From Deinococcales bacterium (lineage in GTDB: Bacteria > Deinococcota > Deinococci > Deinococcales > JAAFIG01), in contig JANNVX010000078.1 in assembly GCA_031414595.1 (NCBI GenBank), positions 1 through 43,853 of the forward strand: a stretch of 43,853 bases of DNA, given 5' to 3'. Shown here piece after piece: positions 7,099 through 12,634 of this stretch (the first letter of the stretch is position 1; every line of letters begins with the position of its first letter). A model generated the notes under the pieces. The model was not told the DNA's origin. It searched no databases and was given only the letters and a program-made list of their open reading frames with translations. Position numbers and translations under genes: made by a program.

Positions 7099-7270
7099 AA
7101 GCAGGAGCAAGAGAAAAACAGCTTTGTTCCTGCTTCCCAAGCCATTGCCCTATGCCGTTTGGCGCATGAATTTAGACTCGAGTCTGATGTACAATAAATC
7201 ACTCGAGCTTGATGCCGTCTGCGCTCGAGAATTTATGGGCGCTTGGTTGCCCAAGCAATGGGGTAGAATC

Positions 7271-7885
7271 ATGCCGAAGTTAAAGCGTCAGCACACCTTC
7301 GAGGAATTATTCGAGGAACAAGAACCAGACATAGTACCTGATGAATCAGCACCGTCACGTACTCGCGGTATTAATCTCAATGCGCCGACGGTGCTTGTCT
7401 TAAATGCCTCCTATGAGCCGTTGCATGTTTGTAGTATCAAACGTGCGATTACACTACTTATGTCTGATATTGCGCTTCGTATTGAGGATAAAGAAGATGC
7501 GTTTTTGCATTCCCCAAGTACCCAAATCCCCGTACCTAGCGTGATTCGCTTGATTAAGTATGTCAAGCGCCCACCACGTTTTCACATTGCTTTTAATCGC
7601 CGCAATGTCTTTCGCCGTGATAATCATGCTTGTCAGTTTTGCGGTAAGGGCGGCAGTGATTTAACGCTTGACCATGTGATTCCACGCTCGAGGGGCGGAC
7701 GCAACTCTTGGGAAAATATTGTCACCGCTTGCCGTGAATGCAACTCTAAAAAGCGTGACCGCACGCCACATGAAGCCAAAATGAAACTGATTCGTGAGCC
7801 GTTCGCGCCTAAGTTTGTCTTCTCGACAGCTTACGGACAAGCCCCTAAACTCGATGCTGCTTGGGAAAAATACATTGGCAGTTAA
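7271..7885 (+). CDS. HNH endonuclease family protein
   Basis: VLVLNASYEPL, RRNVFRRD..CQFCG, LTLDHVIPRSRGG and WENIVTAC..CN.KK motifs. Start probably ATG 7271 rather than TTG 7124. Confidence 0.9.
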   Translation: MPKLKRQHTFEELFEEQEPDIVPDESAPSRTRGINLNAPTVLVLNASYEPLHVCSIKRAITLLMSDIALRIEDKEDAFLHSPSTQIPVPSVIRLIKYVKRPPRFHIAFNRRNVFRRDNHACQFCGKGGSDLTLDHVIPRSRGGRNSWENIVTACRECNSKKRDRTPHEAKMKLIREPFAPKFVFSTAYGQAPKLDAAWEKYIGS

Positions 7886-9825
7886 TTCAGTAAGGCATGA
7901 CGCAAACGATCAAATTCTACGGGGACTTCGCCAAGATGTTCGACAAAACGGCGGCTGGCGCGAAGCAGTTCGCGTTTAGCTGCCAGTTCACCCTCGAGCG
8001 ACAACGTAGTGTTAATCACAAATTCGTAAATTGCGGTGTTGAACGGTTCAATCTCGAGTAAACGATGGGCTAAAGTTAAGCATTTTTGATGCTCACCACC
8101 GTCGTACCAGCGTTGCAAGGTCTCGAGTCCAATTTTAATGATGCTCCATGCCAAGGCTTCACGCTCCTCAACTGCCCACTGTGAACTGGCAGTTGGTAAG
8201 AATTCACCAGTGTAGGTGTTGATCGCACTGGTGATTCTATTATCATCATCGCTGTTGACCAATTGCTGAATAATTTGTGCATCCCAGTATAAATCAGTAT
8301 TGCATTGCACAGCGTAGGTTTTTGCATTTGGATTATATTCAATCCAAATTGCATCGGTGACGCTTTTTAAGGTCTGACGGGTTTTATGAAAGTAATTGGC
8401 GGCTTGGCGTGGAATTGAATCTGGGAATAATGTACCTAAGAACTTATCAAGACTACTGTGTGGATTTTTCAGTAGGTAAGCCAGTATTTCCACTGTACGA
8501 CTCATTCGCAAATTAAGAGGTTTGCCGTCAACGACTAATTGGATTTTACCCAGTGTTAGAATTTGAACTTGTAAAGCTGCTTTTGGTGCTTGAATTTTTG
8601 TAGGCATCAAGGCTTTGCGCCACGCATCTGGCGCTTTTAGTACCAACAATTGCTGTACTCGAGGTAAGCAAATCATTTCAAGACAAGCGGCTTGGTCTTG
8701 GCTTTCAAATGCAATATTCGCAGCGACTTCCAATGCACCTAAAGCTGCTTGTGAATCTGACAACCACAAGTTGACATTGGCAATATGCAAAAAAACACCC
8801 AGCAATTCACGCGGCATATTCAGTCGCAAAAACGCTTCTTTGGCTCGAGTTAAATGCACCAAAGCGACTATGGGTTGAGTGGCACTAAAAACCTGCCCTG
8901 AACGCCATTCAAGAAAGGCTAAATCGCGTTCAGAATGTATCTTAAGATTTTTAGCTCGAGCAAGATGCAATTTGCTAATTTCAAACTCTTCTAAAGTGAC
9001 ATAACAAGCGGCTAAACACAACTCAGCATGAAAAACTACGTCTAAATCCTCGGTTTGGTGAGCAAGACTTGACGATAATTCAAAAGCATTTACTGCCAGT
9101 TGCCAATCTCCTTGAGCGCGGTAAACCACACCCACCACATATTCGAGATTAGCAGTCAGACTTGGAACATATTCCAGTTTTTCACGAACCAACCCAAGGT
9201 CTTGTTTAGCCCGTTCAAAATCAGCTTGGAACAAGCGGCAACGCGCCCGATTCAGCAGCACTCGAGCAGCGCGACCCTGTAAGTAATTATCTGTATTTTC
9301 AAAAGCGATTGTAAAATAGTGTTCGGCTCGAGCGTACCGCCGTACATTCATATACACTTCTGCAAGTATTTGTGCAATTCCAGCCCGAAGTCGCAAAAGG
9401 TCTTCATGGCTTGTTACAGCCGCCCAAGCCATTTTCAGTGTTGACATTGCGCCTTCTTGATCACCTAGCACAAACTGATGAATGGCTAATTCACGTAGAA
9501 GTAGAACATGGTCAAAGCAGTTTTTGGGTTGTTGTTTTGAATCCAAGGAAGTAGTTGCTATTAAAGATTCTATTTCGGCATAGGCACTTTTCCATTCACC
9601 AAGGGCGCGATAAGCCGATGCCAATTCTATACGAGCTTGCACACAGCCTCGAGCCACTGCCCGAACTAATAAATCTTTAGCTCTAAAAGGTTGATTTAGC
9701 ACAAGCAATGCACAACCAGCCCACCGATCATCTACTGCGCTTGGCGCATCAATTCCTAAATACACATCCAAGGCTTTGCCCTCGTAACCATCCAAAATCA
9801 GACTGTGGAGTGGATGAGGCATCAT
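7882..9825 (-). CDS. TPR-repeat transcriptional regulator with C-terminal winged-HTH + BTAD (SARP-like) module
   Basis: The N-terminal ~410 aa are helical TPR-like repeats. They are followed by IQILTLGKIQLVVDG...RTVEILAYLL (OmpR-type wHTH) and YTGEFLP....WAVEERE...LLEIEPFNT (BTAD). Start is ATG 9825/9822 or GTG 9843. Confidence 0.85.
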   Translation of the reverse strand: MMPHPLHSLILDGYEGKALDVYLGIDAPSAVDDRWAGCALLVLNQPFRAKDLLVRAVARGCVQARIELASAYRALGEWKSAYAEIESLIATTSLDSKQQPKNCFDHVLLLRELAIHQFVLGDQEGAMSTLKMAWAAVTSHEDLLRLRAGIAQILAEVYMNVRRYARAEHYFTIAFENTDNYLQGRAARVLLNRARCRLFQADFERAKQDLGLVREKLEYVPSLTANLEYVVGVVYRAQGDWQLAVNAFELSSSLAHQTEDLDVVFHAELCLAACYVTLEEFEISKLHLARAKNLKIHSERDLAFLEWRSGQVFSATQPIVALVHLTRAKEAFLRLNMPRELLGVFLHIANVNLWLSDSQAALGALEVAANIAFESQDQAACLEMICLPRVQQLLVLKAPDAWRKALMPTKIQAPKAALQVQILTLGKIQLVVDGKPLNLRMSRTVEILAYLLKNPHSSLDKFLGTLFPDSIPRQAANYFHKTRQTLKSVTDAIWIEYNPNAKTYAVQCNTDLYWDAQIIQQLVNSDDDNRITSAINTYTGEFLPTASSQWAVEEREALAWSIIKIGLETLQRWYDGGEHQKCLTLAHRLLEIEPFNTAIYEFVINTTLSLEGELAAKRELLRASRRFVEHLGEVPVEFDRLRHALLN

Positions 9826-9858
9826 AATTATTTGATTATACACGTGATTGACGTTTTG

Positions 9859-9887
9859 TCAGCATTTCGTCAGCATCTGCTCAGCAC
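9859..9887 (+). promoter_or_regulatory. Three direct repeats TCAGCA(T/C) at 11-bp period; candidate SARP operator
   Basis: TCAGCA starts at 9859, 9870 and 9881. The last heptamer ends at 9887, 8 nt before the TAGGCT -10 (9896-9901). Confidence 0.75.
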
Positions 9888-9929
9888 TCGGAAATTAGGC
9901 TCTTGGCACAACCCTATTAGGAGGTTTAT

Positions 9930-10055
9930 ATGCGAAAAGCAATTAAATTGGTACTGGCGCTCATGGCAATTGGTGGTTTTTTCTCGGTTGGATTTGCAGA
10001 CCCACTTTCTCATTTAGGTGGCGGCTCAGGTAATGGTATTGCATCTCGACCATAA
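9930..10055 (+). CDS. Small secreted propeptide, 41 aa (not in ORF track)
   Basis: AGGAGG RBS before ATG 9930. The sequence MRKAIKLVLALMAIGGFFSVGFA-DPLSHLGGGSGNGIASRP has a basic n-region, a hydrophobic h-region and a G-F-A signal peptidase I site. Confidence 0.8.
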   Translation: MRKAIKLVLALMAIGGFFSVGFADPLSHLGGGSGNGIASRP

Positions 10056-10172
10056 TTATCTTTTACTTAACATAGCGCAAAGTTCGTTGTTTTGCCAGAA
10101 ATTAAACCCAAATGCTAGAATTTACGTGTGGGGAAATTATTGCTTCTGGCACTGTGATGTAAAAGGAGACAA

Positions 10173-12062
10173 ATGAAAGTTCCGTCATTCCGTCATTCCG
10201 TCATTCCTAGTTTAGTTGGAATTGCCATGCTCACCCTCTCGAGTTGTAACCAAGCCCCACAAGCCGAAAAATCCCATGAACCGACACTACAAATCTCTTC
10301 AACCCAAAACACCTTCCGAAAAGGCGAGCAATTCAACTTAACCCTCGAGCTTTACAGCCCCGAAGATAGCAATGTCAGTGTTATTTTAGGGGCTTCAAAA
10401 AACATTGGTTTAGACCAAGACCAAATCCAAGTCACCATTGCCGCAGGACAAACCAAAACCCTAGAGTTGCACGGCACACCAAAACGGGCTGGGTACTACA
10501 ATATTACCGCCAATGCTACTGGCAGCCAATGGCATGAACCCGCCGCCGATATGCTTGGTTTTAATGTTGCCACCGATAACATCAGTGCCGCAAACGCAGG
10601 AGCTTACCCTCAAACAGCCTCTGGACTCGAGTCATTAGAGGCTCACCTCGAGAACTTACCTAAATTTACCAGTGCAGAAGAATACGCTAAACTCGAAACC
10701 GCGCAGACATTGGATGATGTTAAAAATCAGGACTATGTGCGCTTAGATTCAAGACTCGACAATGTGCGTTTTACTAAACTAGATGGTACAAAATCCGAAC
10801 CATTTAACACTGTTCTAACCTATTTACCTGATACGGGTAGTGGACAACCCCGACCAGAAGACCTTGTAGCACCAACGGCGGCGGCTCGAGCAAAAGCTAC
10901 GATACGTCCTCAGGGTTCAGGCTGCGGAATATCAGGAGCTTGGGCAACAGTCTCAGCAACTATTTCTTATGCTGGTAAAACAGTTTCCCTTCCCTTTACA
11001 AAAATTTCAGTTTGGGAAGAAAGTCCATGGTGGGCATCTGGGCTAGTTTCAACTGGATACACAGATGCCAATGGCAATTACAGCTTTCAGAAACCCAATT
11101 GCGATTTGGGAGCTTGGTGGGATTATAGCGGAGTAGACCTTTACTTTGCTTTAGAATCACTTGATAGCCGTGAAATTGGCGTTTGGAACATTATCAGTTT
11201 TCTGTACAGTGGAACTTATGGGGTGCGTACTGGCACTTACTGGGATACAACTGCCACATCTTTTAACATCAATTTTAATGCCGGTAATTCCGACTCTGAA
11301 AATGCCATGTGGTTATATCGTATGGTCCAAATGGCACAAGATTATAATGTTGAAGCCGGTGGAAATGGCGCAACTTACTTTCCGATTCGTATTAGCTGGC
11401 CCACACGTTTAGACCCAAGAGGGTGGTTTGCGAGTCCATATGTAACTTCTTTTGCTCCTGTTGCTAAACTCGAGATTCTTGGACCACATTGGCTATACCC
11501 ATACATTGCTTGGCATGAATTTGGTCATAACATGATGTATAGAACCTCTAAGCCAGATGAATATGCGACAGCCTATGCACAAGGTCCAAATTCTGTCTAT
11601 CTGCCACTATTTGCTTGGGGCAGTCATGATATAGACCTACAAGAAAATGTAGAGCTTGCTTACAACGAGGGGTTCGCCAACTATTTCTATGTCATGCTAC
11701 AAGATCGTTATGATTTTAATTTTAACACCTACACTACAGACTCTAAGTTTCGGAGTTGCAATTATTATCCATCATGTAACGCATATCCCATTGGCGATCA
11801 AAATGAATCGCGTGTTTCAACATTTATGTACCGATATACTCAAGAAGTTTTGAGACCTGCGAACAACGGCATTTCGGCTAAAGCAGCTTATGGTCTAATA
11901 CGTTCCAGTTTATGGAACGCTGGACAGTATAATCTGAGTTTTTCGACAGCATGGGATACGAAAATTAAAACCACGTTGCCTTCTATTTCCAACTTTCTAA
12001 CAGCTACAAAAGCAATCGCTGATGCTACTTATCTCACACTTACAGGATTACCAACACCATGA
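10173..12062 (+). CDS. Lipoprotein, predicted gluzincin-type zinc metallopeptidase
   Basis: Lipobox LSSC, HEFGH (HExxH) and downstream NEGFA third-ligand motif. AAGGAG RBS. Confidence 0.75.
   Translation: MKVPSFRHSVIPSLVGIAMLTLSSCNQAPQAEKSHEPTLQISSTQNTFRKGEQFNLTLELYSPEDSNVSVILGASKNIGLDQDQIQVTIAAGQTKTLELHGTPKRAGYYNITANATGSQWHEPAADMLGFNVATDNISAANAGAYPQTASGLESLEAHLENLPKFTSAEEYAKLETAQTLDDVKNQDYVRLDSRLDNVRFTKLDGTKSEPFNTVLTYLPDTGSGQPRPEDLVAPTAAARAKATIRPQGSGCGISGAWATVSATISYAGKTVSLPFTKISVWEESPWWASGLVSTGYTDANGNYSFQKPNCDLGAWWDYSGVDLYFALESLDSREIGVWNIISFLYSGTYGVRTGTYWDTTATSFNINFNAGNSDSENAMWLYRMVQMAQDYNVEAGGNGATYFPIRISWPTRLDPRGWFASPYVTSFAPVAKLEILGPHWLYPYIAWHEFGHNMMYRTSKPDEYATAYAQGPNSVYLPLFAWGSHDIDLQENVELAYNEGFANYFYVMLQDRYDFNFNTYTTDSKFRSCNYYPSCNAYPIGDQNESRVSTFMYRYTQEVLRPANNGISAKAAYGLIRSSLWNAGQYNLSFSTAWDTKIKTTLPSISNFLTATKAIADATYLTLTGLPTP
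10180..10207 (+). repeat. Octamer tandem repeat (TTCCGTCA)x3.5 just after the start codon
   Basis: Perfect units at 10180, 10188 and 10196, plus TTCC. Confidence 0.9.
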
Positions 12063-12634
12063 AAAAGACTAATATTTTTTTATTGGGTCTTGCTTTCTTG
12101 AGTGGACTATTTGGCTGTACACCTGCAAGTAGTAATACGCAGCCCAACCTTACATCTGACAAATTGACAATCAAAGTTGGAGAATCTGCCATCATAACCC
12201 TGATTGCTCCAACTCGAACCATAACTTCAAGCCCAGACTTACCAACACAAGTAAACGATACGGGATTTTTGTACACTCCTGACCCAAATCAACCAGTCAT
12301 GAACCCGAACCAAACCATAAACCTACAATCTGCTCCATACTTGCTTGATATAAACGGGGCTTTATCAGGACCAAGCCCAAGCGCATTCCCAATTAGCTCA
12401 CACCTGGAAGTGATTTTGCCAATAACTGGAAGTGATAACATACCTTCTCGAGTTACGGTTGCTCGAGAAGGCGACCAGAGCAAAGCTACCTTTACCATAA
12501 AAGGAAAAAGTCTTGGTACTGTTATTCTAAAAGGTGGGTTTTTAAGTAATATAGTTGAAGTTCCAAATAATTTCAAACGCACACCATTTGTACCTGTTTA
12601 TGATGGAATAGTCACTATTCAAGTTGTGCCTTAA
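12059..12634 (+). CDS. Lipoprotein of unknown function
   Basis: MKK + hydrophobic stretch + LFGC lipobox. ATGA overlap with the peptidase stop suggests translational coupling. Confidence 0.8.
   Translation: MKKTNIFLLGLAFLSGLFGCTPASSNTQPNLTSDKLTIKVGESAIITLIAPTRTITSSPDLPTQVNDTGFLYTPDPNQPVMNPNQTINLQSAPYLLDINGALSGPSPSAFPISSHLEVILPITGSDNIPSRVTVAREGDQSKATFTIKGKSLGTVILKGGFLSNIVEVPNNFKRTPFVPVYDGIVTIQVVP

Follow-up and report, generated by a model that had tools for sequence, protein, structure and literature searches.

A small exported-peptide gene paired with a TPR-SARP regulator gene: a candidate RRNPP-like signalling module in Deinococcota

We analyzed a contig of 43,853 nucleotides from a Deinococcales bacterium (JANNVX010000078.1 of assembly GCA_031414595.1; this whole stretch is hereafter called the window), and in particular a small open reading frame (ORF) of 41 codons located at 9930..10055 on the forward strand. 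The ORF encodes a predicted exported peptide and lies beside the divergently transcribed gene of a large regulator, which combines a tetratricopeptide repeat (TPR) domain with a predicted DNA-binding module of the SARP type. The peptide gene and the regulator gene form a two-gene module that is widespread in the Deinococcus-Thermus phylum. We consider it somewhat more probable than the other readings taken together that the 41-amino-acid (aa) ORF is the propeptide gene of an RRNPP-like two-gene peptide-signalling loop in Deinococcota. A pheromone-type propeptide had already been proposed in the first-pass annotation of the window. This is still the best reading, because the genomic partner of the ORF is a TPR regulator structurally closest to Rap and NprR; this main argument was absent from that annotation.

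Conservation and Predicted Export of the Small Peptide

The ORF is preceded by the Shine-Dalgarno sequence AGGAGG at 9919-9924 (+), which is separated by a 5-nt spacer from the ATG at 9930, and its frame stays open up to the TAA stop codon at 10053-10055 (+), just as described in the first-pass annotation. GGAGG-like sites are also located 5' of the homologous peptide genes. The gene is present in a single copy in the genome, and a six-frame search of 61 related genomes revealed homologues of 38-43 aa in a second genus and in six out of seven genomes of the same genus. The first-pass annotation had named frame disruptions in close relatives as evidence against the gene; in these six genomes the frame is instead intact. 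In total, conservation at the protein level spans more than 40 loci. Pairwise comparisons of the peptide gene revealed 7 synonymous vs 3 non-synonymous codon differences between genomes G005 and G004, 12 vs 9 between G016 and G015, 9 vs 6 between G015 and G011, and 8 vs 8 between G016 and G011.

These data bear on the possibility that the ORF is not a protein-coding gene, but either comes with the regulatory region as a mere by-product or serves as a leader ORF through which the genes that follow are controlled by attenuation. Its small size would agree with this explanation, which is nevertheless extremely improbable given the protein conservation, the ribosome-binding site, the intact frame and the synonymous excess; furthermore, the downstream genes are not conserved, and hence there is no common target for attenuation. 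Judging from these comparisons, the 41-codon ORF is a conserved gene and not a chance ORF.

The first-pass annotation had also described the product as a Sec signal peptide followed by a short mature part, and the features of the family agree with this prediction. The signal peptide would be encoded by 23 codons (9930-9998, +) and the mature peptide by 18 codons (9999-10052, +). The 41-mer begins with a positively charged n-region (MRK..K), continues with an uncharged h-region and contains G-F-A ahead of the predicted cut after A23. Its 18-residue tail is rich in glycine, starts with D-P and ends with S-R-P (DP...GGG.G.GI.SRP). Signal-peptide features were counted by rule in an alignment of 26 family members, the cleavage site being placed by the -3/-1 rule. 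All 26 members have Ala at position -1, one of A, G, V and S at position -3, and a net positive charge over their first ten residues. The hydrophobic stretch comprises 12-19 residues, the predicted signal peptide 21-26 aa and the mature part 10-28 aa, and the genes of the family span 34-52 codons. The mature part starts with D, E, N or G, and its second residue is Pro in 20 of the 26 members.

A hydrophobic stretch of 12-19 residues could also span the membrane, and the product might thus be an uncleaved single-pass membrane peptide that modulates some membrane or envelope process. We regard this as very improbable, since the alignment shows throughout a small residue at -3 and Ala at -1, with a polar D/E-P after them, which is the hallmark of cleavage by signal peptidase I.

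Neither Pfam nor NCBIfam contains a family for the 41-aa peptide, and a feature search of the protein Atlas with the peptide returned just unnamed clusters at 0.80-0.81, which is the chance level. In the source records the homologous peptides, from Deinococcus and Calidithermus species, are labelled "hypothetical protein". Two weak peptide matches (contig C5 of G006 and contig C98 of G003) were rejected as false; they lie inside a V-type ATPase operon and apparently correspond to a small membrane subunit.

Linkage of the Peptide Gene With a Regulator Gene

The regulator gene is located at 7882..9825 on the reverse strand, divergent from the peptide gene, and encodes 647 aa (MMPHPL...) when counted from the ATG at 9825. 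To describe the linkage we used two sets of loci. In the first set, collected with the peptide as a starting point, a regulator homologue with 35-64% identity (tblastn) directly adjoins the peptide gene in ten out of ten loci, in two of which the regulator is truncated by the contig end; the other neighbours differ between these loci.

The second set was collected with the regulator as a starting point, and peptide genes were sought with a strict filter, which demanded an ATG start with K or R close to it, no fewer than 10 uncharged residues in a row, and Ala-[DENAG]-[PGN] followed by G..G..G. Among the best 30 regulator loci, 28 contain a small exported-peptide ORF within a few hundred bases of the regulator gene. 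Twenty-six of them passed the strict filter, and the obviously related peptides of the two others (L037 and L040) were caught by a looser filter alone. The peptide gene is divergent from the regulator gene in 27 of the 28 loci; in the remaining one (L045) it is located 407 nt downstream of the regulator gene on the same strand. For the next 35 regulator loci, with identity levels of 23-33%, a peptide candidate was revealed in 15. As a chance control, the strict filter was applied to both strands of the whole 4,488,778-bp genome to which the window belongs, where it passed 11 ORF starts; only two of these have a Shine-Dalgarno match, namely the 41-aa ORF itself and a second peptide of the same type on another contig (described below). 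Shorter regulator-like proteins of about 570 aa from family f2 were tried as further members and rejected: they match the query at positions ~23-560 only, and no peptide was found in the five loci examined.

Homologues of the regulator were detected at E ≤1e-20 in 94 of 301 genomes sampled across the phylum. Searches of 31 genomes of genus g9 and of 14 genomes of family f4 gave no regulator match. The sole cross-phylum check was made on 72,556 plasmid records, of which seven contain a regulator match; all seven are from Deinococcus, and the regulator is annotated there either as "BTAD domain-containing putative transcriptional regulator" or as a hypothetical protein. At the level of protein clusters, 358 clusters among 1.84 billion representatives match the regulator profile at E ≤1e-30, most of them 630-660 residues long, and a word-indexed protein search with the regulator returned six proteins only.

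In two of the Deinococcus plasmid records, whose gene tables are incomplete, no coding sequence is listed in the gap upstream of the regulator gene, which is the place of the peptide gene; in the second of them we saw the peptide ORF in the un-annotated gap. The description of the gene as hidden in the first-pass annotation thus holds for these tables, but not for the public protein collections, in which a protein identical to the 41-aa product is already present.

Domain Structure of the Regulator

Pfam revealed TPR repeats in the first half of the regulator and a weak match to the BTAD domain near its end; BTAD was recognized in 25 of 26 family members, with a best E-value of 3.7e-14. The AlphaFold2 model, built with 26 family members, has a mean pLDDT of 91.5. 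It comprises helical repeats up to residue 406, followed at residues 418-647 by a strand-helix winged-helix region and then a helical domain. In the window, the N-terminal TPR superhelix (residues 1-406), a putative ligand-binding domain, corresponds to 8608..9825 (-), and the C-terminal module (residues 418-647) to 7885..8574 (-).

The C-terminal 236 residues folded alone gave a pLDDT of 93.8, and in a Foldseek search this domain matched AfsR from the transcription-initiation complexes 8k60 and 8hvr (E 6e-9 to 1e-8, TM 0.68-0.70, about 245 columns). The top AfsR entry was 8k60_J (E 5.7e-9, TM 0.68, 245 columns); EmbR (2ff4) followed at E 1.9e-7, and nothing beyond AfsR and EmbR reached E 1e-3. 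According to the Pfam matches and the model, the C-terminal part of the regulator is a SARP fold, composed of an OmpR-type winged helix and a BTAD domain. As a DNA-binding domain is present, we take the regulator to be cytoplasmic.

The affinity of the sensor half is less evident from sequence. Pfam and NCBIfam gave generic TPR matches only, phmmer with the single regulator revealed nothing at E <0.1 among the PDB sequences, and the PDB hits of a Foldseek search with the whole model were all generic TPR scaffolds of eukaryotic origin. The family profile matches NprR (E 4.7e-6 and 1.2e-5) and RapJ (2.3e-3), amid many unrelated TPR proteins. In a VIA-align structural re-ranking, the TPR domain superposed best on the structures of Rap, NprR and AimR, over nearly the full length of these structures; NprR followed at 26.2 and AimR at 22.5. 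Rap leads MalT and LGN by about 2 Z units, a lead that is suggestive, not decisive. Taken together, the models point to a sensor domain like those of Rap and NprR, joined to a SARP activator at the C-terminus.

Structure of the Intergenic Region

The intergenic region between the two genes is 104 nt long and contains three direct repeats of TCAGCA with 11-bp spacing, that is, one helical turn apart (starts at 9859, 9870 and 9881; 9859..9886, +). Nowhere else in the 4.49-Mb genome does such a triple site occur without mismatches; one unrelated site with two mismatches was revealed. Exact two-repeat sites occur only here and in one other place, about 0.5 being expected by chance. Similar arrangements were observed elsewhere in the family: upstream of 42 peptide genes, exact 6-mer direct repeats are spaced by 11 bp in 11 loci and by 22 bp in nine, and all other spacings from 5 to 40 bp were found in 0-4 loci each. 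The repeated words differ from clade to clade.

A possible -10 element of the peptide promoter, TAGGCT at 9896..9901 (+), is located 9 nt past the last repeat. It was proposed from the sequence and was not called by a scan for consensus promoters; similar words (TAGGCT/TAGCCT, followed by CT..GGCA) are present in loci L044 and L050. SARP boxes standing in place of a -35 element are known from AfsR, and the repeats show the arrangement expected of such boxes; we refer to them as a putative operator, or SARP box, of the peptide promoter.

On the opposite strand, the sequence at 9835..9862 (-) resembles a promoter for the regulator gene (CTGACA, 16 nt, TATAAT; 11 of 12 matches to the consensus), and its -35 element overlaps repeat 1. 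Since this near-consensus promoter sits at 9862..9835, we place the start of the regulator at the ATG at 9825, almost without a leader; the GTG start given by the ORF tool, at 9843, falls upstream of the -10 element.

A separate observation concerns the word CT(T/C)(T/G)GGCAC, which occurs at 9900-9909, after the putative -10 element, and again at 10140-10150, ahead of the first lipoprotein gene downstream of the peptide gene.

Diversity of the Peptides and Multiple Cassettes

The most conserved stretch of the peptides consists of the Ala at the cut site, D/E-P/G, 1-4 further residues and G-x-G, often with GGGG and then L, W, I or F. Variation is seen in the h-region and in the distal tail, the latter differing between clades. 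This is largely the reverse of the pattern anticipated in the first-pass annotation, a conserved signal region with a variable tail. Some peptides end straight after the Gly run, which leaves about 8-10 mature residues, a size more in keeping with a signal than with a structural protein or an enzyme.

Six genomes (G130, G010, G020, G011, G007 and G006) contain multiple cassettes, with regulators of different clades, each accompanied by a different peptide. In a quick maximum-likelihood tree of 58 regulators, the peptide type tracks the regulator clade across genomes. This pattern is consistent with cognate pairs, and descent alone could give the same result. In genus g5, two tandem peptide genes with different tails are located beside the regulator gene (5708-6062 in L027 and 7936-8285 in L029) and are followed by the gene of a large sensor histidine kinase. 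In G011, the second tandem copy of the peptide gene appears to be split between two frames.

The pairing and the size of the peptides are relevant to an explanation in which the TPR-SARP protein senses something else, for instance a small molecule, as in the case of MalT, or a protein partner, and merely switches on a peptide gene whose product has its own function (antimicrobial, metal-binding, or in the surface or matrix). A SARP box before the peptide gene would show regulation, not sensing, and the tails of some Deinococcus peptides contain paired Cys or His residues. On the other hand, mature parts that may comprise just 8-10 or so residues, unmodified and with much Gly, Pro, Thr and Ser, would make poor stand-alone effectors, and the one-to-one pairing has been kept through the expansion of paralogues, as in cognate pairs, even if shared ancestry could suffice for this. 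We consider such a regulated product fairly unlikely and continue to prefer a signal that is sensed by the paired regulator.

Two more loci of the genome to which the window belongs deserve description. A second peptide ORF of the same type, with 46 aa, a ribosome-binding site, a signal peptide and A-D-P...GGGP, is located on contig C88 at 169244-169384 (-) (loci L102 and L104). It is convergent with the gene of a 951-aa AfsR-like regulator (166424-169279, +), whose 3' end it overlaps by 36 nt; this regulator has a SARP N-terminus followed by NB-ARC and TPR. The C88 peptide is kept in G003 at 78% identity; it is also kept in G005 at 76%, where the match contains one stop. Contig C29 encodes, at 7225-9228 (+) (L103), a distant paralogue (667 aa, 26% identity, TPR and BTAD) of the window's regulator; it is followed by the gene of an HD_5 (HD-GYP-like) protein, and no peptide ORF was found beside it with the filter.

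Genes Surrounding the Module

Two lipoprotein genes, encoding 629 aa (with the motif HEFGH) and 191 aa, are located 3' of the peptide gene at 10173..12634 (+). Neither product gave a Pfam match. Between the peptide gene and this pair no terminator was predicted, and a promoter-like site is present at 10092-10121. The two lipoprotein genes are a possible local output of the module. The 629-aa gene (10173-12062, +) has no second copy in the genome, and its product gave no match in Pfam or NCBIfam and no meaningful match among the PDB sequences. We considered this lipoprotein as a conserved part of the module and rejected it, since no homologue is located beside any other cassette. Generally, the genes downstream of the peptide vary: they encode lipoproteins in several loci, sensor kinases in g5 and unrelated products elsewhere.

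The composition of the neighbourhood is also relevant to the view that the ORF is the precursor of a ribosomally synthesized and post-translationally modified peptide (RiPP), with the modifying enzymes encoded elsewhere or among the unassigned neighbours; the HEFGH lipoprotein, for example, could be a maturation protease. The Gly-rich core, the Cys pairs in some homologues, the absence of a Pfam match for four out of ten scanned neighbours and the HEXXH motif of the 629-aa protein would be compatible with a RiPP. Nevertheless, no recognized RiPP enzyme was found among the ten neighbouring proteins scanned, different cassettes have different neighbours, and the 629-aa protein is near no other cassette; in addition, RiPP precursors usually begin with a leader peptide and seldom with a Sec signal peptide. 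We therefore share the opinion of the first-pass annotation, which had ranked a RiPP lower for lack of modification enzymes nearby, and regard this origin of the peptide as improbable.

Several features of the surrounding genes were noted in passing. The 629-aa lipoprotein, with its HEFGH (HEXXH) motif, may be an uncharacterized metalloprotease under the control of the module. Just inside the 5' end of its gene, at 10180-10207, there is a perfect 8-bp tandem repeat, TTCCGTCA, in 3.5 copies; as eight is not divisible by three, the gain or loss of a copy would shift the frame, and the repeat may serve as a phase-variation switch. On the other side of the module, an HNH endonuclease gene (7124-7885, +) converges on the regulator gene with a 4-nt overlap, and this neighbour is kept in G003.

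A Proposed Model of Peptide Signalling

Thus, it can be proposed that the two genes constitute a signalling loop of the following kind. The propeptide would leave the cytoplasm by the Sec route, and signal peptidase I would cleave it after A23, giving an 18-residue Gly-rich peptide, which is perhaps trimmed further. This peptide, presumably re-imported by an oligopeptide permease, would be bound by the Rap/NprR-like TPR domain of the cytoplasmic regulator. The SARP domain would then bind the three 11-bp-spaced TCAGCA repeats that stand in for the -35 element and activate the peptide promoter. Such activation, including any read-through into the lipoprotein genes, would create a positive feedback loop, and binding at repeat 1, over the -35 element of the regulator promoter, would probably repress the regulator gene. 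As for the import route, 14 genes of SBP_bac_5 peptide-binding proteins are present in the genome, a finding that is permissive only. A predicted complex of the TPR domain (residues 1-412) with peptide residues 12-41, obtained without controls, scored 0.02, where the mark is 0.32, and is evidence on neither side of the question of binding.

Several points weigh against this model. The production, secretion, maturation and binding of the peptide are all steps that we infer. The active peptide of the known RRNPP systems is usually the C-terminal end of the propeptide, and a diffusible signal of these bacteria would need to cross their outer membrane. The conserved D/E-P/G...G-x-G is identical in cassettes that should be orthogonal, which is unusual for specific pheromones. 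A single operator site was found in the genome, and the regulon may consist solely of the peptide gene and its neighbours. Finally, no peptide was detected with the filter in two of the best 30 regulator loci (L038 and L058) and in 20 of the next 35.

A broader proposal, which we put forward more tentatively than the signalling loop itself and regard as somewhat short of probable, is that a separate family of quorum-sensing circuits based on peptides exists in Deinococcota. In each of them, a Rap/NprR-like TPR receptor fused to a SARP activator would be combined with a cognate Gly-rich peptide exported by Sec and a private operator with 11-bp repeats; the circuits would have been multiplied into orthogonal copies within a genome and would often be borne by megaplasmids.

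The literature that we found treats imported-peptide signalling via cytoplasmic TPR receptors as a trait of Bacillota and of the mobile elements of these bacteria. No description of a secreted peptide paired with a TPR-SARP regulator was found in it; supplements, which were outside the search, could list non-Firmicute candidates. The terms Deinococc, BTAD and SARP are absent from a structural-phylogeny paper on RRNPPA (PMC12700828), and a paper on a Deinococcus SARP concerns a CheY-SARP response regulator (PMC3564903). We have found no peptide signalling system described for this phylum, and the module is a good candidate for one.

If the broader proposal is true, RRNPP-type communication would exist outside Bacillota, in bacteria with an outer membrane. 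This would suggest that the TPR fold for peptide sensing arose before the radiation of Bacillota or passed from one phylum to another. The regulator would represent a new receptor architecture, a TPR sensor with a SARP output, with a readable operator code, and the cassettes could provide orthogonal peptide-inducible switches for Deinococcus, an interesting chassis for radiation-resistant biotechnology. The module can be tested in cultivable Deinococcus species that carry it on plasmids. More generally, small genes of 34-52 codons, absent from some annotation tables, can be the key partner of a large regulator.

Comparison With Known Systems

The module resembles the RRNPP systems (Rap-Phr, NprR-NprX, PlcR-PapR and AimR-AimP) in that the gene of an exported propeptide is located beside the gene of a TPR receptor taken to be cytoplasmic, and in that several paralogous pairs may be present per genome. 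It differs from them in several respects. First, RRNPP systems are those of Bacillota and their phages, whereas the module belongs to Deinococcota. Second, the receptor is about 645 aa long; the RRNPP_detector survey covered receptors of 250-500 aa and was confined to Firmicutes and viruses (PMC10075063). Third, the output is a C-terminal SARP module, and not an N-terminal HTH or a Rap-type effector-binding N-terminus. Fourth, the conserved part of the peptide is located directly after the signal-peptide cut and not at the C-terminus. The logic appears to be that of RRNPP; the similarity in sequence is at the generic TPR level, and membership in the family is at most putative.

MalT, whose LAL-type TPR/SUPR sensor responds to maltotriose, also appeared in the structural comparison. 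Unlike the regulator described here, it has an ATPase and a LuxR-type HTH, and we know of no peptide partner gene for it.

With the SARP activators (AfsR, EmbR and the small SARPs of Streptomyces) the regulator shares the predicted fold of a winged helix with BTAD and the 11-bp-periodic direct repeats at the target promoter, to which its binding is putative. The usual SARP domain order has the module at the N-terminus, and this is where it lies in the matched chain ranges of AfsR and EmbR; in the regulator described here it is C-terminal, behind the sensor. The regulator further differs in that no NB-ARC ATPase lies between its domains and in its pairing with the gene of a predicted secreted peptide.
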